Both the position numbers and the translations under genes were made by a program. Source: Fibrobacteria bacterium (GTDB lineage Bacteria; Fibrobacterota; Fibrobacteria; UBA11236). From it: 64,000 nucleotides of DNA. How positions within the stretch are numbered: the stretch's first letter is position 1; every line of letters starts with the position of its first letter. Where the stretch lies: assembly GCA_035275285.1 (NCBI GenBank), contig DATENA010000271.1, forward strand, positions 53,354-117,353. Reading direction: 5' to 3'. Under the pieces are notes generated by a model. That model had not been told where the DNA came from and did not search any database. It saw only the letters and a list, made by a program, of their open reading frames with translations. Positions 13,915-53,349 of the stretch are shown here, piece by piece.

Positions 13915-15243
13915 TCAGGCCGGGTACAGGGCCGCGGGAGCCCGCTCCGGAAAGGGCCGGAAGCCCTCCAGCGCCTTCAGGCAATTTTCGATTTGCGCGC
14001 CTTTCTTGTCCTTTTTGGAAGCCGTCTCCACCTTGGGCAGCAGCCCGAAATTGAAATTCATGGGCTGGAAATCCGGATTCGCATCGGTCAGATGGCGCGT
14101 CAGGGCGCCCAGGCAGGTGGCCTCCGGCCAGGCGAAGCCGTCGTCCCCGCGGAGATGGGCCAGGATCATGGAAGCGGCGTACATGCCCGTCCCGATGGCC
14201 TCGGTGTAGCCTTCCGCGCCGGTCAGTTGGCCGGCGCAGAATACGCGCGTGCCTTTGATGCGCAAGGACGGTTCCAGCACCTGGGGCGAGTTGAGGAAGG
14301 TGTTGCGGTGCATGGCCCCGAAACGGGCGAAGGCCGCATTCCGCAAGGCCGGCACCAGGGAGAAGATCTCCTTTTGCGTGCCCCATTTGAGCCGTGTCTG
14401 GAAGCCCACCAGGTTGTACAGGGTGCGTTGCCGGTTTTCGGCCCGCAACTGGATCACGGCGAACGGCCTTTTGCCCGTGCGTGGATCGTGCAGCCCGATG
14501 GGCCGCATGGGTCCATAACGCAAGGTCTCCGGGCCCCTACGGGCCATTTCTTCCACGGGCAGGCAGCCTTCGAAGAGTTGGCCCTTTTCGAACGGCTTGG
14601 GTTCCACCGTATCCGCGAGGCGCAAGGCCTCGATGAATGCGAAATAGGTGTCTTTGTCCAGCGGGCAGTTGATGAAGTCCGGCTCGGCGCCTTTGTCCCA
14701 GCGGTTCTTGGCGAAGGTCTGGTCCAGGTCCAGGCTGTCGAACTCCACCACCGGAGCGATGGAGTCGAAGAAATACAGGCGTTCCGAACCGATCAGGGAG
14801 AACAGGGATCGGGTCAGCCGATCCGAGCTCAACGGGCCGGTGGCCAACAGGGTGAGTTCCCCGGGATCGAGATCCCCGGCTTCTTCCCGGCGCAGCGCGA
14901 TGCGCGGATGGGAGGCGATGGCCTTCTCCACCGCCGCGGAGAACAGATCCCGGTCGATGGCCAGGCTCTCGCCCGCGGGCACGCGGGACTCCATGGCCAG
15001 GGCGATGAGGCGCGATCCCATCCGCCGCAACTCTTCCTTGAAGATGCCATGGGCGGAAGTCAGGGCCAGGCCCTTGAACGAGTTGGAGCAGACCAGTTCG
15101 GCGAGGTTCCCGGTCTTATGGGCGGGCGTGGTCACCTGCGGGCGCATTTCCCACAATTCCACCTCGTGCCCCGCGTCCGCGAGCTGCAACGCGGCCTCGC
15201 ATCCCGACAATCCGCCACCGATGACCTTGACCGTCGTTGCCAT
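13915..15243 (-). CDS. trmFO: Methylenetetrahydrofolate--tRNA-(uracil54-C5)-methyltransferase TrmFO (Gid)
   Basis: FAD-binding N-terminus VKVIGGGLSGCEAALQLA, ELVCSNS, and a C-terminal GQLTGAEGYTEA. The ATG at 15243 sits inside a slightly longer ORF-track frame. Confidence 0.9.
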   Translation of the reverse strand: MATTVKVIGGGLSGCEAALQLADAGHEVELWEMRPQVTTPAHKTGNLAELVCSNSFKGLALTSAHGIFKEELRRMGSRLIALAMESRVPAGESLAIDRDLFSAAVEKAIASHPRIALRREEAGDLDPGELTLLATGPLSSDRLTRSLFSLIGSERLYFFDSIAPVVEFDSLDLDQTFAKNRWDKGAEPDFINCPLDKDTYFAFIEALRLADTVEPKPFEKGQLFEGCLPVEEMARRGPETLRYGPMRPIGLHDPRTGKRPFAVIQLRAENRQRTLYNLVGFQTRLKWGTQKEIFSLVPALRNAAFARFGAMHRNTFLNSPQVLEPSLRIKGTRVFCAGQLTGAEGYTEAIGTGMYAASMILAHLRGDDGFAWPEATCLGALTRHLTDANPDFQPMNFNFGLLPKVETASKKDKKGAQIENCLKALEGFRPFPERAPAALYPA

Positions 15244-15249
15244 CAGGAT

Positions 15250-15375
15250 GGAGTGCAAAGTGCAAAAGTCAAAGTGCAAAATTCAAAATCAAGAAACGAA
15301 ACAATACGCATGCACTCTCCCTGGGCGCTCCCCATTTTGCACTTTGACTTTTGCACTTTGACTTTTGAATTTTTC
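15250..15375. repeat. Low-GC inverted-repeat element, copy 1. The arms are built from a tandem CAAAGTGCAAAAGT core; the central spacer is unique
   Basis: Left arm 15250-15293 reads GAGTGCAAAGTGCAAAAGTCAAAGTGCAAAATTCAAAATCAAG. Right arm 15334-15375 reads ATTTTGCACTTTGACTTTTGCACTTTGACTTTTGAATTTTT. The core GTGCAAAAGTCAAAGTGCAAAA is perfectly inverted between arms. It lies between a hypothetical gene's 3' end and the trmFO start, both on the minus strand. Confidence 0.8.
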
Positions 15376-15391: not shown

Positions 15392-15949
15392 CTAGTGGCT
15401 TGATCCCAATCCCTGCATTTCCAGGTTTTCCGAGAAGGCCCGCAAGGCCATCTTCCCGATCTGGACCCGGGTGGCGGGAAGCGAGGTCAGGAAGGCGCAG
15501 TTCTCGATCAATTGCTCCAATTGGGGCGGACCGATCAGGCCCAGGCGGTAGAGCTCCAGCAGATAATCGTAGGCTTCCACGGAGATGAACTCGCGTTCCA
15601 TGGGATGGAGCACGCGGATCTTCACGGGCGATTGCCGGCTTTGCTCCGCCTGGGATGCGGCCCAGGAAACCAGGGCATCCGCCGTGGTCTTGTGCAGTCC
15701 CAAACGGTCCAGGTCCGCCGCCAGGCTGTCCCATAGGGGCGAAGCGGCCACGGCCGGGGATTTCTCCGCGGCGGGCTTGCCGGCCCCGGCCTTCCCGGCG
15801 CCGGGTTTCCCGGCCGCGACCTTGCCGCGCGCGGGCTTGCCCCGGGGCGCGGGGGGGCCGGGAAAACGCTCCCCTTTCCGCTCCGCCTTCATGTGCAGCA
15901 GCAGCGCGTCGAAAATCTTCGACTGCAATTGCGGATTGATATCGATCAT
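15392..15949 (-). CDS. Hypothetical protein with a low-complexity Pro/Ala/Gly/Lys-rich linker
   Basis: 185 aa. An N-terminal helical segment is followed by the repetitive [34 protein letters not shown] and a conserved-looking C-terminal domain. No recognisable motif. Confidence 0.45.
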
Positions 15950-23487: not shown

Positions 23488-24563
23488 AGATCCATACCCG
23501 CCACGTGCTCAAGGCGTTCCTGGGCCTTCTGCTCCTGACCGTGATCTCCATCGTGGTGATCTTCGTGGTCATCGATTTCGTCGGCAACAGCAAGATCTGG
23601 CTGACCCGGACCCCGAAAGAGGTGTTCCGCTATTACCTGGACTTCCTCCCGCACATCCTCTACCTGATCCTGCCCATCGCCATGCTGCTGGCTTCCGTCT
23701 TCTCCATCGGGAACATGTCCCGGAACCTGGAGCTCGTGGCCCTGCGCGCGGCCGGCGTCCCGGTGGTGCGCATTTTGGCGCCGATCCTCCTGTTCGGATT
23801 GATCGCCAGCGGGGTGATGTTCTGGTTCGAGGACGCCGTCCTGCCGGATGCGAACCACCGCCGCTACGAGATCAACGAGCCCAAGTCCCAGGACGGGGAC
23901 CAGGGCGGCGATCCCCTGGAGAAGTTCAATTACCTCTTCACCGCCTCGGACGGCATGGTGCTGTATTTCGATTTCTACTCGGGCCACCGCAACACCGGGC
24001 AGGGCATCACCGTCATCACCCAGCCCAAGCACGGGCCCATGGAAATGCGCATCGACGCCCGTTCCATGGCCTGGGACAAGGATCGCTGGCTGCTGCGGGA
24101 CGGCACCAAGCGGGTCTTCTACAAGGGCGTGCTGGAATCCTTCCCGTTCAAGGAACTGCCCTTTCCGGAGTTCAAGGACAAGCCCATGGACCTGCTGGAC
24201 GACCGCTCCTATCCGGAGGAGATGGGCATCCAGGAACTGGATCGCCGCATCGCCATCCTCAAGCGGTCCGGGGAGTCTTCCCGCGTCCTGGAGACGGAGC
24301 GCCACTTCCGCTTTTCCAGCAGCCTGGTGAACCTGTTCATGGCCCTGATAGGCACCGCCATGTCCGTCCATACGGTGAAATCGGGGTTGGCCCGCAACTT
24401 CGGCGTCGCCCTGCTGATCACCTTCCTGTATTACGTGGCCCTGCGCCTGGGCCTGGTCATGGGCCAGAACGGAAGCCTGTCCCCGGTGATGGGCGCCTGG
24501 CTCGGCAATCTCATCTTCGCGCCCCTGGGATTCCTGCTCCTCTGGAAGGCGGCCCGCGTGTGA
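23484..24563 (+). CDS. lptG: LPS export ABC permease, LptF/LptG family (second paralog)
   Basis: MKIHTRHVLKAFLGLLLLTVISIVVIFVVIDFV. The ATG at 23484 overlaps the upstream stop in an ATGA. 359 aa. Confidence 0.8.
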   Translation: MKIHTRHVLKAFLGLLLLTVISIVVIFVVIDFVGNSKIWLTRTPKEVFRYYLDFLPHILYLILPIAMLLASVFSIGNMSRNLELVALRAAGVPVVRILAPILLFGLIASGVMFWFEDAVLPDANHRRYEINEPKSQDGDQGGDPLEKFNYLFTASDGMVLYFDFYSGHRNTGQGITVITQPKHGPMEMRIDARSMAWDKDRWLLRDGTKRVFYKGVLESFPFKELPFPEFKDKPMDLLDDRSYPEEMGIQELDRRIAILKRSGESSRVLETERHFRFSSSLVNLFMALIGTAMSVHTVKSGLARNFGVALLITFLYYVALRLGLVMGQNGSLSPVMGAWLGNLIFAPLGFLLLWKAARV

Positions 24564-26341
24564 GCGGGCCCTGGTTTTTCCTCGCGGGCGCGTTCGCCGG
24601 CTTGGGATTCCTGGGCGGAAACTGGCGGCTGGCTTTCGTACCCGCGGCGGCCTGCCTCGTGCTCGCCTGGACCGGCGGCCGCGCCGCCCTGGGCCGGAAG
24701 AAAAACGGCGGATCGCCCACCCGCAAGACCTCAGTGGTGCCCCAGCAAGCCTTTCCGGAACCCTCCACGGAGGAGCGCCGCCAGGACACCACCCGCGCGT
24801 TCCTCAAAGGCGATATGGCCTTGGTGGGCAGCGAGGCCCAGGCCCGGGAAGCCCGCAAGCTGGCCCTGCGCGAACTGGAAGACAACATCGACGGCGCCAT
24901 CTTCGACGGGCTCGCGCTCCTGAAGCAGGCCGTTCCGGGCGGGCACACCTACGCGGTGCTGTTCCCGGGGAAGAACGACGGGCTCTACCTGCGCGCCTGG
25001 ATCACGGACAGCGGATCCGTGATTGCCGGGGCCGTGCTGAACAGCAACCAGGGCCTGGTGGGGCAATTGAACAAGGACGGCGTGCGCCGGGTGCTGGAAG
25101 GCGACATCGTGGCCGATTCCGCCCAATTGCACTACTACTCCGGCCACGACGGCGTGCGCTCCCTGGCCGGCGTCCCCATCCTGGTCAAAGGCGTCCGGCG
25201 CGGGGCGGTCATCGTCGACAGCCTGCGGGAGAACGCCTTCGACGCCCGGACCATCGAACGCCTGGATTCCCTGGCCAACCTGCTGGGGCATCTGGCCTAC
25301 CACGCCTACATGGCTTTCGAGCATGCCTATCACAAGGAGCAATTGGCGGCCCTGACCAGCTACCAGCGCAAATTCCTGGAGAACATGTCGGTCGAGAACA
25401 TCGTCACCCACGTGCAGAATTACATGGCCGAATGCCTGGAGGGCGATCGCTTCCTGGTGGTGGAGCGCGTTTCCCGCCAGGGCGACGACGCGCGCATCGT
25501 GAGCTGCATCGGCGCGGACGACAAGGAGATGCAGGGTCTCGGGTTCCGCCTCTCGGAGAAAGGCCTGGCGGCCCTGGCCTTCGAGAAGGAGCAGATCATC
25601 AACCGCGCGTTCCCGCCCACGCCGCACGTGCCCCGCTTCAGCCCCAGGGAAAAGGCCCACGGGCGCATGGCCAGCCTGCTGGCCGTGCCGGTGCCCACGG
25701 ACCAGGGCGTGGACATGGTCCTGATGGTGGAATCCGTCCGCCCCCGGCGTTTTTCCGAGCACCACCAGAACCTGCTTTCCACCATCGCCCGCGCGGCCGG
25801 CTTCGCCCTGTCCCGCGCCCGCCTCTACCAGGAGAAGGAGCAGCTCGCCAGCCGCGACGGGCTCACCGGGGTGGAGAACCACCGCACCTTCCAGGAGCGT
25901 TTCCTCAACGAGATCCTGCGCGCCCAGCGGTACGCTCACCAACTGGCCGTGATGATGATGGACATCGATCTCTTCAAGAAGGTGAACGATACCTACGGCC
26001 ATCCGGTCGGCGACCAGGTCCTCAAGGAAGTGGCCCGGATCATCTCCCAGAACATCCGCGCGGGCACCGATCTGCTGGCGCGCTACGGCGGGGAGGAGTT
26101 CGTGGTCATGCTGGCGGATACGGACCGGACCCGGGCGGGAGAGACCGCGGAGCGGATCCGCGAGAGCATCGCCGCCAAGGTCTTCGAATCCGGCACCGTG
26201 CGCTTCCAGGTCACCATGAGCATCGGCGGGGCCATCTACCCTTCCGATTCCCGCCACGGGCGGGAGATCCTGGAGAAGGCGGACAAGGCTTTGTACCGGG
26301 CCAAGGAGACGGGGCGGAACAGGCTGGTGTTCTACAATTAA
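24560..26341 (+). CDS. Membrane-anchored GAF-GAF-GGDEF diguanylate cyclase
   Basis: GTG start overlaps the lptG stop (GTGTGA). Two N-terminal TM helices, two GAF-like domains, and a C-terminal GGDEF domain with an intact RYGGEEF active site. Confidence 0.85.
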   Translation: MSGPWFFLAGAFAGLGFLGGNWRLAFVPAAACLVLAWTGGRAALGRKKNGGSPTRKTSVVPQQAFPEPSTEERRQDTTRAFLKGDMALVGSEAQAREARKLALRELEDNIDGAIFDGLALLKQAVPGGHTYAVLFPGKNDGLYLRAWITDSGSVIAGAVLNSNQGLVGQLNKDGVRRVLEGDIVADSAQLHYYSGHDGVRSLAGVPILVKGVRRGAVIVDSLRENAFDARTIERLDSLANLLGHLAYHAYMAFEHAYHKEQLAALTSYQRKFLENMSVENIVTHVQNYMAECLEGDRFLVVERVSRQGDDARIVSCIGADDKEMQGLGFRLSEKGLAALAFEKEQIINRAFPPTPHVPRFSPREKAHGRMASLLAVPVPTDQGVDMVLMVESVRPRRFSEHHQNLLSTIARAAGFALSRARLYQEKEQLASRDGLTGVENHRTFQERFLNEILRAQRYAHQLAVMMMDIDLFKKVNDTYGHPVGDQVLKEVARIISQNIRAGTDLLARYGGEEFVVMLADTDRTRAGETAERIRESIAAKVFESGTVRFQVTMSIGGAIYPSDSRHGREILEKADKALYRAKETGRNRLVFYN

Positions 26342-26367
26342 GGCGGTCTGGGGGATCGAGGAGAGAG

Positions 26368-26499
26368 AATTCAAAGTGCAAAAGTCAAAGTTCAAAGTGC
26401 AAAATGAAGAAGGGGGAGGCGACGGCCGATGCCGTACTTCTTTGCGTGCGTTTGTCTTAAATTTCGACTTTTGCACTTTGAACTTTGACTTTTGAACTC
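26368..26499. repeat. Low-GC inverted-repeat element, copy 2 (same family as 15250-15375)
   Basis: Left arm ATTCAAAGTGCAAAAGTCAAAGTTCAAAGTGCAAAATGAAG. Right arm ATTTCGACTTTTGCACTTTGAACTTTGACTTTTGAACTC. The spacer is unique and about 50 nt. It lies between the GGDEF gene stop and the tadA start on the + strand. Confidence 0.8.
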
Positions 26500-26515: not shown

Positions 26516-27007
26516 ATGTTGCTCCCTCCCGACGACGAATACTTCATGCGCCAGGCCCTGCGCGAGGCGCAAGGCGCCTATGAAGAGGGTGAAGTGCCCA
26601 TCGGCTGCGTGATCGTGAAGGCGGGGAAGATCCTGGGCCGCGGCCGCAACCACATGGAAACCCTGCGGGACCCCACCGCGCACGCGGAGATCCTGGCCCT
26701 GGGCGCCGCCAGCGGGGCCCTGGACAATTGGCGCCTGGACGGCTGCACCCTGTACGCCACCCTGGAGCCTTGCCCCATGTGCGCCGGGGCCATCCTCAAC
26801 GGCCGCATCGCCAAGGTGGTCTACGGGTCCAAGGACAAGCGCCTGGGCGCCCTGGGGTCCGCCTACGATATCCTGACGGACAATCCCCTGAACCGCTCCA
26901 TCGAGGTGGTGGGCGGCGTGCTGGCGGAGGAATGCCTGGACCTGTTGCGGTCCTTTTTCCAGGAGAGGCGCAAGCGTCCGGCGAAATCCGCCCCCGAAGA
27001 AGGATAG
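26516..27007 (+). CDS. tadA: tRNA-specific adenosine deaminase TadA
   Basis: CMP/dCMP deaminase zinc motifs HAEILAL and PCPMCAGA. ATG at 26516; the ORF-track start at 26492 is a TTG lying inside the repeat arm. Confidence 0.88.
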   Translation: MLLPPDDEYFMRQALREAQGAYEEGEVPIGCVIVKAGKILGRGRNHMETLRDPTAHAEILALGAASGALDNWRLDGCTLYATLEPCPMCAGAILNGRIAKVVYGSKDKRLGALGSAYDILTDNPLNRSIEVVGGVLAEECLDLLRSFFQERRKRPAKSAPEEG

Positions 27008-27219: not shown

Positions 27220-27375
27220 TCCGGACCGGGGTGCCGCAAGCCTTGGGCGCCGGCCCGCCAATAGGTATATTGGCTCTGCTCATCCTGGAAGGCGCAGACC
27301 TCACGCAATTGACGCGAGCTGAACCCCGCCAGGACGAAAGTAGCAACGGTAGGCATCAACTCAATGTGCCGTGTC

Positions 27376-27475
27376 GAAGTCTGCCGCCAACCGGGATGAG
27401 CACCTCCTTTTAGAACATCCCGGTTGGCGCGCTGACCGGGATGAGCACCCCCTTCTAGAACATCCCGATCAGCGC
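27376..27475. repeat. Two tandem, near-identical hairpin units (13-15 bp stem, 17-nt loop) in the 630-bp region upstream of the hybrid kinase gene
   Basis: Unit 1 is GCCAACCGGGATG-agcacctccttttagaa-CATCCCGGTTGGC. Unit 2 is GCGCTGACCGGGATG-agcacccccttctagaa-CATCCCGATCAGCGC. They share the CCGGGATG / CATCCCGG core. Confidence 0.75.
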
Positions 27476-27641
27476 GCCGGCCGGCGCCTATCCTCCTCGC
27501 CGCATTCCGTTTTTCCTCTTTTGGGTTTTCCCCGGAGCTTTGGGATTCCATCCCCCGGTGAGGAATTTTTTTGTGCGGTCCGAAACGGAAAAAGAATAAT
27601 TAGGGCTTCAGGTCCCGACCCGGGTCCGCCGAAGGGGTTGA

Positions 27642-42262: not shown

Positions 42263-44731
42263 CTATTCCCGCGTCGCGCCCGGTGCTTCCCACCAGCCCG
42301 CCAATTCCGGACTGATGGCCCACAGGCCCGGTTCCGTCAGGGAGCGGATGCGGGAAGCCTCCCCCCGTAACGCCTCCAATACCGGGGCCGATTCCGCGCG
42401 GGCCCAATCGCCTCCCATCACGGACACCACGTCCACTTCCCCGGCGGCGGAATAGGGCGCCACGTCCACGTTCCGGAGCGGGCCCAGCTTGGCGAGCCCG
42501 GCGGCCTCTTCCAGGGCGTCCTGCAGGCCTCCCAGGCGGTCCACCAGCCCGTTCCCCAGGGCCTGCGTCCCGGTGAAGATGCGGCCCTGGCCCAGGCTGT
42601 CCACCTCCGCCTTGGTCTTCTTGCGCCCGGCGGCGACCTTGGCGATGAAATCGTCGTAGAACCGATCCATGTGCTTCTGCAGCATTTCCGTTTCCGTCGA
42701 GTCCCAGGGGCGCGCCATGGAGTTGGCGTCCGCATGGGGCGAGGTCTTCACCGCTTCCGTATTCAAGCCCAGTTTTTCATACAGGCCCTTCAGCACGAAC
42801 TTACCCCAGAGCACGCCGATGCTCCCGACCACCGAGTTGGGCGCGGCGAGGATCCGGTCCGCGCCGCAGATCAGGTAGTAGCCGCCGGACGCCGCGTCAT
42901 GGCCCACCGAGGCCACCACGGGCTTGCCGGCTTTCTTCAGCAGTTCCACTTCCCGCCACATGATGTCCGCCGCCTGCGCGGATCCGCCCGGGGAATCCAC
43001 CCGCAGCACCACCGCTTTCACGGAAGGGGAAAGGCGGGCTTTGCGCAATTGGGCCGCCACGGTTTCCGAGCCCGCCAGGTCCGGACCCGCCAACCAGGCC
43101 CGCACGCTCTTGCCCAACACCATGTCCCCGGTCACGATCACCAGCGCGATCCGCGGAGGGATGTCCCAGGTCTCCCGGACGTTCGCCTCCGGGACGTCGT
43201 GGTTCAGCACCGCGTGCTTGCCGCCCGCCAGCTTCAGCGCCTGATCCTGATAGATGAGGGTGTCGATCAGGCCGGCCTGCACCGCGTGCTCCAGGCCTAT
43301 CTCCCCGGACTCCAGGGCCGCGCGCAGCATGTCCTTGGGCATGCCCCGGCCCTGGGCCACCGCGTCCAGGTAATGGTCCCAGAGCGCGTCCAGGAGGCTT
43401 TCCAGGTCGGCCCGCATGGGCGCGGACATCTCCTTGCGGGTGAAGGGCTCCTCGAAGGATTTGTATTTCCCGTGGCGCAGGAATTGCGGCTCCACGCCCA
43501 GCTTGTCCAGCAGCCCGCGGTAGAACATCACCTCGGCGGCGAACCCGTTCACGGCGAAAAAGCCCCGGGGCTGCATCGCCACCACGTCCGCGGCGGAGGC
43601 CAGGAAATAGTTGAGCGGAGAGACCTGCTCCAGGTACGCCGTCACGCGGATCTTCCGGTCGCGCAGGCGCAGGATGCGCCCGCGGATCTCCTCGCCCATG
43701 GCCCATCCGCACCGGGCCTTTCCCAGCTTGATCAGCACGGCCTTGATGCGGGGATTGGATTCTATCACGTCGAAGCGCTTCTGCACGTCCAGGAAACCGA
43801 TCCGGCCGCCGGCGGCCAGCCAGCCCGCCGGCGTCCCTCCCTCCACGATGGTGCGGTTGAGGTCGATCTCCGCGACGTTTCCGGCCGAGACCAGGAAAGG
43901 CGTTTTCTGATCGACGCGGAATTGCAGGGACGCTTGCCGGTGTCCTTTGTCGGCCAGGCCCGAAGCCAGGCGGCCTTCCATCCCACCCGTCCCCTGGGAA
44001 CCGCCCTTGGCCCATCCGAAGGCCCCCGCCACCCGCGGGAAAGCCTGCAGGCTCAGGCCCAGGAAACCTTCCCGGTGCCATAGGTCCACTTGCGATTCGA
44101 GCTTGAAGCCCAAGCCCAAGGGCACTTGGGTGAACAGGAAACCGCGGCGTTTCCCCCCTTCCTCCTTTTCCAGGCCCAGGCCCAGGTTGAAATCCCCCAA
44201 GGCGCCCGGGCGGGAACCCCAGGGCCGCACGGCGGCGGCGAACCGGTGCACCCTGTTTTCGTCGCTGCCCGACCACAGGTTCTCCCCCCAATATCCGGCC
44301 AGCAACCGAGGCAAGGGGCGGAAGTCGAGGCCTGCGTCCAAAAGCAGATGATCCGGTCCGGCTCCGTCCCAGACGAAGGCAGGGCGCACTCCCGGTGAAA
44401 ACAATCCCAACACATTGCCGGCCAGGGCCAGGTCGAAACGCGCCAGATATGGCCCCTTTCCTTCCCAATAGCGGAAGCCCTCCGCATGGCCGGGCCCCTG
44501 GTTCTGCGCGGCCCAGAGGCGTTGCGGCCCGCCGGTAAGCGCCTCCCATTCCGACCAGCCCAGGTCGACCCGATCGTCGGATCCGAACGCGGCGGCGGCG
44601 GGATTGGCGAAGGCGGCCAGCCCCGTATTGGCGGCGATACCGTTCGAAAAGGGTAAAGCGGAATCCCAGGCCTGGAGGACCGCGGGCAGCAGGGCGAGGG
44701 ACGTTAAAAGCGGACTAAACCGGAATTTCAT
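42263..44731 (-). CDS. sppA: Signal peptide peptidase SppA (S49, two-domain 67K type) with an extra roughly 290-aa N-terminal secreted domain
   Basis: The C-terminal 520 aa carry tandem S49/ClpP-fold domains (IKAVLIKLG ..., KAVVLRVDSPGGSA ..., VASVGHDAASGGYYL). The N-terminal 300 aa, after the signal peptide MKFRFSPLLTSLALLPAVLQA, has no recognisable family but is Gly/Trp/Phe-rich. Confidence 0.8.
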   Translation of the reverse strand: MKFRFSPLLTSLALLPAVLQAWDSALPFSNGIAANTGLAAFANPAAAAFGSDDRVDLGWSEWEALTGGPQRLWAAQNQGPGHAEGFRYWEGKGPYLARFDLALAGNVLGLFSPGVRPAFVWDGAGPDHLLLDAGLDFRPLPRLLAGYWGENLWSGSDENRVHRFAAAVRPWGSRPGALGDFNLGLGLEKEEGGKRRGFLFTQVPLGLGFKLESQVDLWHREGFLGLSLQAFPRVAGAFGWAKGGSQGTGGMEGRLASGLADKGHRQASLQFRVDQKTPFLVSAGNVAEIDLNRTIVEGGTPAGWLAAGGRIGFLDVQKRFDVIESNPRIKAVLIKLGKARCGWAMGEEIRGRILRLRDRKIRVTAYLEQVSPLNYFLASAADVVAMQPRGFFAVNGFAAEVMFYRGLLDKLGVEPQFLRHGKYKSFEEPFTRKEMSAPMRADLESLLDALWDHYLDAVAQGRGMPKDMLRAALESGEIGLEHAVQAGLIDTLIYQDQALKLAGGKHAVLNHDVPEANVRETWDIPPRIALVIVTGDMVLGKSVRAWLAGPDLAGSETVAAQLRKARLSPSVKAVVLRVDSPGGSAQAADIMWREVELLKKAGKPVVASVGHDAASGGYYLICGADRILAAPNSVVGSIGVLWGKFVLKGLYEKLGLNTEAVKTSPHADANSMARPWDSTETEMLQKHMDRFYDDFIAKVAAGRKKTKAEVDSLGQGRIFTGTQALGNGLVDRLGGLQDALEEAAGLAKLGPLRNVDVAPYSAAGEVDVVSVMGGDWARAESAPVLEALRGEASRIRSLTEPGLWAISPELAGWWEAPGATRE

Positions 44732-44888
44732 CGATTATACTCATTTTCCCGAAAAAAAGATCGTGTCCGACCCTTCTACTTCGTAAATTAAAGGATAGAG
44801 GGTTTACGTTTATTGGAGCCCAGGAAAATCCGCCCAGGCTCTTGGATTTTGCCGCTATTTTTCTTTCTTTGAAAAAAGAGGAACCAAA

Positions 44889-45140
44889 TTGGATAACGAA
44901 AAAGCCAAACTAATCAAGGGAATTATCGCCGAGGTGGTGGGCTTCGATCTCGAAGACATCAGTGACGAAGATAAGTTCATTGTCGACTATAAGATCACCT
45001 ATGGCGAACGCAAAGCCTTGCTGGAAAAGCTGAATCAGACTTTCCAAAAAGAGTTCGGTTTTGATGAGTTCTGCAAAATGGACAAAGTGGCCGATGTTAT
45101 TGAAGCCTACAATGTCAGCTCGGTAGGCCAGTCAGGCTGA
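44889..45140 (+). CDS. Small acidic ACP-fold (acyl-carrier-protein-like) protein lacking the conserved Ser; encoded in a roughly 45%-GC islet
   Basis: TTG start with the SD AAGAGG 6 nt upstream. IIAEVVGFDLEDISDEDKFIVDYKITYGERKALLEKLNQTFQKEFGFDEFCKMDKVADVIEAY aligns with the ACP IIAEQLGV...[45 protein letters not shown], with DSL replaced by TYG. Codon usage is AT-rich, unlike the neighbouring genes. Confidence 0.55.
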   Translation: MDNEKAKLIKGIIAEVVGFDLEDISDEDKFIVDYKITYGERKALLEKLNQTFQKEFGFDEFCKMDKVADVIEAYNVSSVGQSG

Positions 45141-45159
45141 ATTTCCCCGCTTCCGGTCT

Positions 45160-45927
45160 TCATCGGCCGGAATCCTTCCCCACTCCCGGTTTTCCGACTT
45201 CTTGCGAAGCTGGCTCCCCAGGGTAGGGCTGCGATTTATCAGTGTCCGGTTTTCCGCCACCCTCCTTCTGCGAGGCCGTTTTGAGCCGCAGGAAATCCGC
45301 GCACTCGAGCGGTTCCAGCCTTCCCGCATATCCGGCTTTGCGCTGCACCGTGGTCGGCCCCGATTCGACGGTGTAACATAAGGATTTCTCCCCCCCTATG
45401 TCCAGGGGAATGTCCAGTTTGATGATGCGCAGCCGTTCCGTGGCGTTTTCCGGGAAGAACTCGCAATAGTCCAGCTTGGATTTGATGAAGGTGCGCCGCT
45501 TCTTCTCATCGAAAAGCAATTTGCCCCCCAAGTCCGGCGGCAGGCCGATCGGGAGGGTGTTCTGCAACCGCAGTTCGAGCTCCTGGCCCTTGCGCACGAT
45601 TTTGGCGCCCTTGGGCAGCAGGAGATTGCGATGCTCGGGGATGTTCTTATAGGCGCGGTAATTGCGGGTCTGCACTCCGCATTCCTTCTTGATGTCCGCG
45701 CCGGCCTGGTTGAAATCGATGTCCTGGCAGATCTCGGGCATGTCCTCGGGGGCGTAGACTTTGGGCTGGGAGGAGGATGGGGCTGCGCCGCCGCAACCCG
45801 TCAGCGCCACCGAACAGGCGAGAACGCTCCAGAATCCGGTTGCATGCCTAGCGTATCGATCGATCAGACCGCACTCCCCCGGTGAAGCGTTGCATGGGAA
45901 AAATGAGCTAAATTGGAAATATAACAA
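45160..45927 (-). CDS. Lipoprotein of unknown function
   Basis: Signal/lipobox ATGFWSVLACSVALTGCGG. The only in-frame start upstream of the signal peptide is a TTG at 45927 with no SD, so the true start is uncertain. Convergent with the ACP-like gene. Confidence 0.4.
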   Translation of the reverse strand: MLYFQFSSFFPCNASPGECGLIDRYARHATGFWSVLACSVALTGCGGAAPSSSQPKVYAPEDMPEICQDIDFNQAGADIKKECGVQTRNYRAYKNIPEHRNLLLPKGAKIVRKGQELELRLQNTLPIGLPPDLGGKLLFDEKKRRTFIKSKLDYCEFFPENATERLRIIKLDIPLDIGGEKSLCYTVESGPTTVQRKAGYAGRLEPLECADFLRLKTASQKEGGGKPDTDKSQPYPGEPASQEVGKPGVGKDSGR

Positions 45928-49373: not shown

Positions 49374-49624
49374 CACACCCATGCGCTCCGGGCCTTCCCC
49401 GGGGCCGGAAACGCCATATTTGGTTTTCATTCCGAAAACGACCGGAACGCGCGCCTTCCGGGTCCGTTTCCATAACACCTTGTTCATTGGATAGTTATGG
49501 GAACTTTGGAATCCAAGAGTTTTCAACCGGCATCGTAAATGCCCCGGTTGATGTCCCATGCTGAAAACGCCTGCCCAAGAGGTGGATTGGGGGGTAGATT
49601 GGAACAGGGGATGGAGAGCGGCAT

Positions 49625-50464
49625 ATGGTGAACATCTTCGAATACATGGACTACCGGCAGTTCCTGCAGGAGTATTACACCGAACGCAAGGCCCAGAATC
49701 CCGCTTTCTCCTACGAGGTGTTCGCCCGCAAGGCCGGGTTCAAATCCAAGGGCTTCCTCCACCATATCCTGACGGGCAAACGCAACCTGTCGAAGAACGC
49801 CATGTTCGCCATCTCGACGGCCATGGGATTGGATGAAAAGGCCTTCTCCTTCTTCCAGAACATGGTCGCGTTCAATCAGGCCAAATCCCAAGGCGAGAAG
49901 GCTTTCTTCTTCAAGAAGCTCATGGAAACGAGCCCCAAAAGCCCCGCCAAGCTCCTGCAGGAAGGCTTTTACGAATTCTATTCGCATTGGTATTACAACA
50001 CCGTTCGGGAATTGATTACCTTGGTACGGTTCAAAGAGGACTACGCGCTTTTGGGAAGCCTGCTCAACCCGCCTATTTCCGCCGCCCAGGCCAAGAAAGC
50101 CGTGCAGCTCCTGCTCCAATTGGGGTTGGTGGAAAAGACCCGCACCGGATACAACGCCACCCATCAGGCCATCACCACGGGCGACGAGGCCCAAACCATG
50201 GCCACGCGGGACTTCCACGGCCAGAACATGGACCTGGCCAGGACGGCCATGGACACGGCGGATCCGGAGGAGCGCGATCTGTCCTGCCTGATAGTCGCCC
50301 TGCCGGAAGCGGGATTCCAATCCTTGAAATCCGAGATCCAGGCCTTCCGCAAGAAGCTCATGCGCATGGCGGACGGAATGACCGGCCCCAACCGCATCTA
50401 CCATATCAACTTCCAGTTTTTCCCCACCACCAAGAACCTGGCGGGCAAAGAGGGAGGGTCATGA
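49625..50464 (+). CDS. TIGR02147-family protein (Fibrobacter succinogenes major paralogous family-like)
   Basis: N-terminus MVNIFEYMDYRQFLQEYYTERKAQNPAFSYEVFARKAGFKSKGFLHHILTGKRNLS matches my recollection of the family's opening block (IFxYxDYRxFLxDYY...FSYRxFxxKAGFxS). 279 aa. Confidence 0.55.
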   Translation: MVNIFEYMDYRQFLQEYYTERKAQNPAFSYEVFARKAGFKSKGFLHHILTGKRNLSKNAMFAISTAMGLDEKAFSFFQNMVAFNQAKSQGEKAFFFKKLMETSPKSPAKLLQEGFYEFYSHWYYNTVRELITLVRFKEDYALLGSLLNPPISAAQAKKAVQLLLQLGLVEKTRTGYNATHQAITTGDEAQTMATRDFHGQNMDLARTAMDTADPEERDLSCLIVALPEAGFQSLKSEIQAFRKKLMRMADGMTGPNRIYHINFQFFPTTKNLAGKEGGS

Positions 50465-53183: not shown

Positions 53184-53285
53184 GGAGTCGGGAGTCGGGA
53201 GTTGAAGAAAAGAGAAAGCATGCCGGGCATGCTCCCAGGCCGGTTTTCACGGCCTCTTTTCTTCAACTCCCGACCCCCGACTCCC
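53184..53285. terminator. Very long imperfect hairpin (about 31-bp stem, 39-nt loop with an inner palindrome) between convergent genes
   Basis: Left arm GGAGTCGGGAGTCGGGAGTTGAAGAAAAGAG (53184-53214). Right arm CTCTTTTCTTCAACTCCCGACCCCCGACTCCC (53254-53285). There is one mismatch, and the loop contains GCATGCCGGGCATGC. It lies between the ubiA-family gene (+) and a small outer-membrane-protein (OMP) gene (-). Confidence 0.45.
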
Positions 53286-53349
53286 GACTTGATGCCGCCC
53301 CAAGCTCCAGCTTCTCACTCCCCCAACAAGCTTCCCACATGGCTCTCTT

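Follow-up and report, generated by a model that had tools for sequence, protein, structure and literature searches.

The closest published parallel to the repeat element analyzed here is found in Xanthomonas, where arrays of the heptamer GGGAATC, mostly of about four units, lie between genes and, in each genome, make up 70–75 inverted pairs in convergent order (Rehm et al., 2015, PMC4692102). These pairs occur between the same genes in two species with variation in length, and they are transcribed, but no function has been found for them (PMC4692102). More generally, heptanucleotide units are the most abundant long simple-sequence repeats (SSRs) in most bacterial genomes, with polymerase slippage as a suggested origin (Mrazek et al., 2007, as reviewed in PMC4679880), and direct repeats of TAACTGA are common to Beggiatoaceae, cyanobacteria and Bacteroidetes, for which S1, cold-shock proteins (Csp) or CsrA have been proposed as binders (MacGregor, 2015, PMC4679880). 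In this study, we describe an A/T-rich element in a stretch of 64,000 nucleotides from a Fibrobacteria bacterium (assembly GCA_035275285.1, contig DATENA010000271.1, positions 53,354 to 117,353), hereafter called the window. The element lies at 15250–15375, between a DUF494/Smg-like gene and trmFO (copy 1), and a second copy separates a diguanylate cyclase gene from a tadA-like gene. It belongs to the intergenic heptanucleotide SSRs that occur as inverted pairs, and on the whole we lean towards reading it as a palindromic repeat derived from such an SSR, similar to repetitive extragenic palindromes (REPs) and MITEs (miniature inverted-repeat transposable elements), and co-transcribed as an intercistronic RNA hairpin.

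The inverted repeat that a first-pass annotation had noticed at this position is borne out, with two arms of 27 nt (15256–15282 and 15334–15360) that are 100% complementary and 51 nt apart; a second pairing register extends over 31 nt at 90%. Each arm is in turn a tandem array. Tandem Repeats Finder returned periods of 7, 14 and 21 on every arm, with 3.9–4.4 copies at period 7, and five units can be parsed per arm. The tandem structure claimed earlier thus stands, whereas the unit is 7 nt and the alleged 13–14-nt unit corresponds to two heptamers. The units of the A-rich strand (GTGCAAA, AGTCAAA, ATTCAAA, GTTCAAA) contain no G tracts and are not of the G-rich, G-quadruplex-capable kind. They also lack an internal palindrome, so that pairing takes place only between the two arms of the doublet. 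The GC content is 29–32% in the arms, 54.5% in the spacer and 40.5% over 15250–15375, compared to 64–67% in the flanks and 64.4% in the window; the value of about 30% first given for the whole element is therefore that of its arms. The 22-nt core of the arms has five matches in the window versus none in 100 dinucleotide shuffles, and a 14-mer has seven versus a shuffle mean of 0.16. Copy 2 (26367–26499) was found through the extra matches of the 22-nt core; its 30-nt arms are 97% complementary and 64 nt apart. No other A/T-rich heptamer arrays are present in the 64-kb window. Both copies share the features of an inverted-pair heptanucleotide SSR, with at least three to four 7-nt units per array and arrays on opposite strands that converge close together. 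The architecture thus consists of two arrays, here of five units each, of an A/T-rich heptamer that belongs to the TTTGCAY family; as an inverted pair, the arrays converge on a free loop of higher GC content.

Syntenic regions from eight further Fibrobacteria assemblies, retrieved via homologues of TrmFO and of the GGDEF protein, provide both filled and empty sites. Site 1, the junction between smg and trmFO, is filled in the window and in the lineage of L122, L123 and L126 (TrmFO 88% identical). In L124, L125 and L127 (TrmFO 87%) the element is degenerate with a decayed left arm, and L121, with a TrmFO that is 94% identical, has no arrays at this site and a 69-nt T-rich spacer instead. More distant relatives have either a gap of 37 nt (L129) or a gene overlap of 4 nt (TTGA; L130–L132). 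Site 2, the junction between the GGDEF gene and tadA, is filled in the window and in L126; the genes overlap in L127 (TGATG), and they are 56 nt apart in L128 and 6–67 nt apart in L129–L132. A third copy in L126 separates def from an MR_MLE gene and runs against the direction of these genes; L127 has 19 nt at this junction. Taken together, site 1 is filled in three lineages and site 2 in two, with differing unit orders, and period-7 arrays are absent from about 99 kb of L128–L132. Within the sub-clade of the window, genes that almost adjoin or overlap in more distant relatives are now about 130 nt apart. Because these distant relatives have the same gene pairs overlapping or 6–67 nt apart, the elements are recent gains in one sub-clade at formerly tight or overlapping junctions, with a distribution that is patchy even among close relatives, and they are not conserved control sites of trmFO or tadA. 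As a separate observation, the trmFO start of L121 (10001–10030), ATGGCAAAAGTCAAAATC (MAKVKI), resembles two heptamer units, which is probably a coincidence.

When filled and empty sites are compared, neither site 1 nor site 2 is flanked by a direct repeat that could represent a target-site duplication. In the orthologous copies the arms are still recognizable, while the loops have diverged past alignment. The units at site 2 have switched jointly in both arms (GTG/GTT/AGT-CAAA in the window, ATG/AGT-CAAA in L126). Such a joint change fits concerted evolution of a quasi-palindrome; alternatively, different family members may have inserted independently at one site.

Many other bacteria have this architecture in abundance, usually between co-directional genes and starting a few nucleotides after the upstream stop. 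A scan of a species-representative genome collection with a degenerate four-unit pattern (three times CAAARKB followed by CAAA) returned at least 119 loci from many phyla. Among the matches listed, an inverted partner lies no more than 400 nt away from 27 of 131 arrays (about 23 distinct elements), the A-rich array leads in 22 of these 27, and the hosts of the inverted pairs are named as Acidobacteriota, Planctomycetota, Verrucomicrobiota, Chloroflexota, Cyanobacteria, Bacteroidota, Eubacteriales and a lineage of the candidate phyla radiation (CPR); single unpaired arrays are common as well. In metagenomes, the exact gapped pattern of copy 1 (GTGCAAAATG, 45–75 nt, TTTTGCACTTTG) is present at no fewer than 120 loci on contigs of 37–70% GC. 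A restriction of the arms to the two loci of the window, which would have counted against the first-pass annotation by its own terms, is clearly not the case. Removal of duplicates and chance matches from the metagenome matches listed left a clean set of 88 elements with a median stem of 32 bp at 87% identity, a median loop of 36 nt and a median length of about 101 nt. GC content is 32% in their arms, 47% in their loops and 58% in the contigs, and the arms comprise 4–6 units with the logo TTTGCAY. Heuristic open reading frame (ORF) calls, on which all class-level gene contexts are based, place 43 elements of the matches listed between co-directional, 12 between convergent and 6 between divergent genes; they follow the upstream stop by a median of 13 nt and precede the downstream start by a median of 35 nt.

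Copies of the complete element, loop as well as arms, also occur with unrelated flanks within some genomes. Three families with near-identical elements were found, namely L150/L217 versus L216, L233 versus L234, and L212/L221/L182. L212 is the clearest multi-copy family: positions 1–2900 of this contig (JGI Ga0316610_1000662) contain six near-identical TTTGCAY-armed elements within 2.9 kb between small ORFs, with arms and loop kept, including a 112-nt tandem pair at about 2600–2830. The gapped pattern has no match in IMG/VR, and blastn of copy 1 gave no plasmid match. A looser array pattern matches 24 viral contigs, most of which carry plain (CAAAATG)n microsatellites, several of them in giant-virus metagenome-assembled genomes (MAGs). 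True inverted pairs occur in only three viral contigs, L255, L271 and the contig represented by L256 and L264; the latter (IMG/VR 3300033121_001564, 98 kb, 64% GC) has two pairs of the TGCAAAR type at L256 2861–2960 and L264 11128–11258, and L255 and L271 have one each.

The presence of filled and empty sites raises the possibility of a classical MITE. Such an element would have arisen from an insertion sequence by deletion and would be moved in trans by the transposase of the latter, with the heptamer arrays recognized as terminal inverted repeats. Terminal inverted repeats are indeed present, the length of about 100–135 nt is appropriate, and the multi-copy families found elsewhere have conserved loops and unrelated flanks. 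However, neither window site shows a target-site duplication, and none is seen at the ends of L150/L216, which are ambiguous and A/T-rich. The arms do not represent a fixed terminal sequence either, but vary in the order and number of related heptamers, and one unit family across phyla of 37–70% GC is not explicable by a single insertion-sequence family. In addition, the retrieved loci include no longer element in which such ends flank an ORF. The widely spaced array pairs that were inspected, 0.8–1.8 kb apart, enclose ordinary genes (for an RfbD-like reductase, AccC and a hypothetical protein) and not transposases. We consider a classical MITE unlikely. The MITE-like or REP-like nature suggested by the first-pass annotation is nevertheless retained in the broad sense of a dispersed, non-coding, hairpin-forming intergenic repeat that is present or absent at the same site in close relatives and has multi-copy families in other genomes. 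It is lost in the strict sense, as the target-site duplication of a MITE is missing, no autonomous partner turned up among the retrieved loci and the arms are heptamer arrays instead of palindromic REP units.

Growth in place without any mobility would offer a different origin, in which polymerase slippage expands a 7-nt seed and template switching produces the inverted partner. The over-representation of heptanucleotide repeats among long bacterial SSRs, with slippage as the proposed cause (Mrazek et al., 2007, as cited in PMC4679880), agrees with this, as do the unrelated loops of copies 1, 2 and 3, the frequency of single unpaired arrays and a further inverted pair of the window that is built from a different unit. 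The latter, at 53184–53289, has three units of the G-rich heptamer GGGAGTC and a loop with two small GC hairpins, and folds at −77.7 kcal/mol (z −8.3). Its arms, however, also mirror a 12-nt non-repeat segment, TGAAGAAAAGAG, and this pair must therefore have resulted from an inverted duplication, not from two separate expansions. Starting from junctions of 0–6 nt, growth in place would furthermore have to create about 130 nt, including a non-repetitive loop of 44–55 nt, from nothing, and it does not account for near-identical whole elements with different flanks elsewhere. When the same locus is compared between different samples, close strains differ by substitutions only, and no unit-number polymorphism was observed between near-identical same-locus pairs. 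An origin exclusively by growth in place thus seems improbable to us.

The palindromic repeat that we favor would instead have spread by a mechanism that copies entire elements without producing a target-site duplication. Its arms would be kept complementary by concerted evolution, with template switching or gene conversion acting on the quasi-palindrome. The element would be transcribed with its operon and fold into an AU-rich stem of about 30 bp. By analogy with REPs and bacterial interspersed mosaic elements (BIMEs), such an intercistronic hairpin, if it has any effect, might shield the upstream cistron from 3′ exonucleases or offer a site to a double-strand-specific RNase, and it would break the former translational coupling to trmFO or tadA. 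Most likely, the element is near-neutral selfish DNA rather than a dedicated trmFO regulator.

Several observations weigh against this interpretation. The loops differ among copies 1, 2 and 3 of the Fibrobacteria lineage, so copy-and-paste within this lineage would have to be deduced from the comparison of filled with empty sites. Close same-locus pairs differ by substitutions instead of whole units, so that slippage shows no visible activity. Co-transcription and RNA folding are presumed from gene order only, and the gene contexts of the class depend on heuristic ORF calls. Arms score 21.5 with their own partner and 18.3 with foreign partners, which is a modest excess, and a rank in the top 5% is reached by only 26% of the elements; that both arms share one unit family accounts for much of their complementarity. 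Finally, in the 43 elements with a known sense strand, 51 G.U mismatches versus 38 A.C mismatches were counted on that strand (p = 0.2). This excess is not significant and therefore nothing points specifically to selection at the RNA level.

The window belongs to a metagenome contig, and proteins identical to its products carry the label Fibrobacteria bacterium. The genes around both copies are listed together with the parts of the elements in Table 1. At copy 1, the gene order is purC, purH, the DUF494/Smg-like gene, the element and trmFO, all on the minus strand. The location between an upstream gene and trmFO on the same strand had been recognized correctly, but both genes read leftward. 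The stop codon of the DUF494/Smg-like gene lies 18 nt from the nearer arm (15373) and the trmFO start codon (15243–15241) 8 nt past the element; the start codon of the tadA-like gene lies 16 nt past the arm of copy 2. Other features of the window include a 15/30-nt tandem repeat inside the DUF494/Smg-like gene (15767–15838), which codes for a P/A/G/K-rich linker with a variable length among relatives (products of 149–206 aa), and a 45-nt unit repeated 2.2 times (83% match; 27385–27484) that starts at the last bases of the signal recognition particle (SRP) RNA gene (27292–27389). Local GC dips to about 0.53 occur at 44500–45500 and 49500–50000, compared to 64% for the contig, with several A/T-rich intergenic stretches; these regions may be acquired DNA.

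Table 1. Positions in the window of the two element copies and their neighboring genes (a dot stands for no strand).
Feature	Position	Strand	Remarks
trmFO, downstream of copy 1	13915..15243	-	PF01134; NCBI name TrmFO
Copy 1, A-rich arm (plus-strand reading)	15252..15288	.	AGTGCAA AGTGCAA AAGTCAA AGTGCAA AATTCAA; GC 0.32; 3′ U-rich arm in the trmFO transcript (minus strand)
Copy 1, spacer (loop)	15289..15332	.	unique sequence, 54.5% GC; not kept in orthologous copies
Copy 1, T-rich arm (plus strand)	15333..15373	.	TTTGCAC/TTTGACT/TTTGAAT units; reverse complement of the A-rich arm; GC 0.29
DUF494/Smg-like protein gene, upstream of copy 1	15392..15949	-	185 aa; PF04361, weak
GAF-GGDEF diguanylate cyclase, upstream of copy 2	24560..26341	+	
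Copy 2, A-rich arm	26367..26405	.	AATTCAA AGTGCAA AAGTCAA AGTTCAA AGTGCAA AATG
Copy 2, spacer	26406..26460	.	56% GC; contains a small GC hairpin, ACGGCCGATGCCGT
Copy 2, T-rich arm	26461..26499	.	
tadA-like tRNA adenosine deaminase, downstream of copy 2	26516..27007	+	PF00383, PF14437 in orthologues

The potential to form a stem-loop, which had been proposed for copy 1, is confirmed by prediction for both copies. For the RNA in gene direction, folding energies range from −53.7 to −57.2 kcal/mol in copy 1 (z between −5.2 and −6.3) and from −57.4 to −68.8 kcal/mol in copy 2 (z between −5.2 and −6.5), each with a long A-U-rich stem of about 27–30 bp and a branched apical loop; orthologous copies fold at z −2.8 to −6.5. 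No Rfam family was found at either element at gathering thresholds. At a loose E-value nearly all matches that overlap the hairpin are to long-hairpin microRNA precursor models (mainly from plants), with 15–31 bits versus thresholds of 54–211, which indicates a generic long hairpin. A sigma-70 promoter scan gave no hit at copy 1 or copy 2. A promoter of the Bacteroidetes type (−33 TTTG / −7 TAnnTTTG) in the TTTG arrays was dismissed by eye since the TA is absent, and integron attC sites, heptamers like those of recombination signal sequences (RSS) and sigma-54 boxes were dropped because the sequences do not fit.

With such a hairpin between two genes, a terminator or attenuator of transcription, as the first-pass annotation had also suggested, has to be considered; it would control how far transcripts read through into trmFO and tadA. 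Either strand presents an A-rich arm, a GC-richer loop and a U-rich arm, the layout of a bidirectional terminator; the elements lie near upstream stop codons, divergent contexts are the rarest, and the loop of copy 2 contains two weak terminator-like sites where 0.7 are expected. Copy 1, in contrast, contains no terminator-like site, and across the class such sites are not enriched (14 of the 88 elements versus 9.3, with a maximum of 15, when the loops are shuffled). The stem adjoining the U-rich arm consists of A-U and not of G-C pairs, and a G+C-rich stem of at least 5 bp followed by a U tract is lacking. The elements were moreover gained inside tight operons, in the case of copy 1 between genes with a 4-nt overlap in the more distant relatives and in the case of copy 2 upstream of tadA, a gene that is generally essential. 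Their absence in close relatives implies that they are not a conserved control point. Our tests thus argue against a canonical terminator, and we regard terminator or attenuator function as highly improbable.

Neither leader-peptide nor antiterminator logic could be recognized. In every Fibrobacteria copy an ATG at the inner end of the A-rich arm, within the innermost heptamer, opens a short ORF, but the encoded peptides (MGSAQGEC..., MKKGEATADA..., MGTYAPANY..., MENGPCRS...) are unrelated and end at different places. A leader peptide or upstream ORF was therefore rejected, and we treat these short ORFs as a by-product of the CAAAATG unit. In copy 1, this ATG opens a frame of 30 codons on the minus strand (15243–15335; MGSAQGECMRIVSFLDFEFCTLTFALCTPS), the TGA of which overlaps the trmFO start codon as TGATG. 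This frame could restore a termination-reinitiation coupling that was lost by the insertion, yet the arrangement is not kept in L122, L124 or copy 2.

The heptameric period also invites the idea, in line with the protein-binding site listed by the first-pass annotation, that the arms are candidate arrays of sites bound by a protein whose footprint is 7 nt. This could be a DNA-binding protein or one with a cold-shock domain that binds the U/T-rich single strand, and the hairpin would compete with the binding. One cold-shock domain covers a heptanucleotide. The preferred motif of Bacillus subtilis CspB is GTCTTTG/T, and on arrays a bright spot was given by the hexamer GCACTT (PMC1904285); the window units GACTTTT and GCACTTT match these motifs at 6 of 7 positions and exactly, respectively. 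The same idea has been proposed for the TAACTGA repeats (PMC4679880). A universal protein would in addition explain why one unit family recurs across phyla. This support, however, consists of a motif resemblance in T-rich sequence, and the class consensus in the CspB register, CAYTTTG, agrees with the CspB consensus only at positions 3–7. The arrays are also frequent in cyanobacteria, from which CspA-type proteins are largely not known, and their patchy presence argues against a required regulatory site. Protein binding as the main role of the arms is thus very doubtful. We attach hardly any probability to an extended version, in which the TTTGCAY-armed palindromes would be a functional RNA device across phyla and the U-rich arm a phased array of Csp binding sites with one cold-shock domain per unit. 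If it were true, the chaperone level, and through it temperature or growth state, would determine if the hairpin between the cistrons is closed or melted, and mRNA decay, processing or downstream translation would be tuned at hundreds of operon junctions.

The over-representation of heptanucleotide SSRs has been known since 2007 without an accepted origin or function. To this background we add TTTGCAY, a family of A/T-rich units arranged as convergent, hairpin-forming pairs. Such pairs occur in metagenome contigs of 37–70% GC and, with related units of the CAAA type, in MAGs assigned to many phyla. We further add clean filled and empty orthologous sites, where whole elements appear at formerly overlapping junctions, and identical copies with unrelated flanks. 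Two questions can now be tested on defined sequences, namely by what route these elements spread in the absence of a transposase signature and whether they act on mRNA. When high-GC MAGs are annotated, the elements commonly account for unusual low-GC blocks between genes and for spurious short ORFs. A search of the available literature for the unit strings returned no bacterial paper, and the A/T-rich variant appears to be undescribed.

Compared with established repeat families, the element combines features of several of them. Like the REPs, BIMEs and REPINs of proteobacteria, it is a small non-coding intergenic repeat that often occurs as an inverted doublet with a long hairpin, presumably between co-transcribed genes, and without target-site duplication. 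REP and BIME elements stabilize upstream mRNA and attenuate downstream expression. The REP unit is, however, an imperfect palindrome of 20–40 nt with a conserved 5′ GTAG that is tied to a RAYT (Y1 HUH) transposase, whereas the present arms are non-palindromic tandem heptamers. With MITEs such as the Correia element of Neisseria and the enterobacterial ERIC sequences it shares a length of about 100–150 nt, terminal inverted repeats, presumably co-transcribed hairpins, which in the case of Correia elements are processed by RNase III, and insertion polymorphism. Correia and ERIC sequences have fixed terminal sequences, and Correia elements are flanked by TA duplications, while the present element has no duplication and ends in variable heptamer arrays. 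It resembles bidirectional intrinsic terminators in the succession of A-rich tract, hairpin and U-rich tract, alike on both strands, but differs from them in lacking a G+C-rich stem that abuts the U tract.

The closest relationships are with other heptamer repeats. A period of 7, an intergenic location and a sporadic distribution across phyla are common to the present class, the long SSRs of Mrazek et al., the heptameric short tandemly repeated repetitive (STRR) sequences of cyanobacteria and the TAACTGA repeats. These other repeats are mainly direct arrays, those of TAACTGA just upstream of start codons, whereas the present class forms an inverted pair nearer to the upstream stop. It is with the GGGAATC pairs of Xanthomonas that the element shares intergenic heptamer arrays in close convergent inverted order with the potential to form a stem-loop or cruciform, and both classes are under-represented between divergent genes. 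Within the window, the GGGAGTC pair has a unit close to the GGGAATC/GGGANTN repeats of Xanthomonas. The present unit differs by being A/T-rich (TTTGCAY family) in a genome of 64% GC, by being unable to form a G-quadruplex and by its host, a member of the Fibrobacteria. Beyond what is described for the Xanthomonas pairs, our analysis reveals the gain of such elements at formerly overlapping gene junctions, their occurrence in MAGs assigned to many phyla and, in some metagenomic contigs, the existence of dispersed identical copies.

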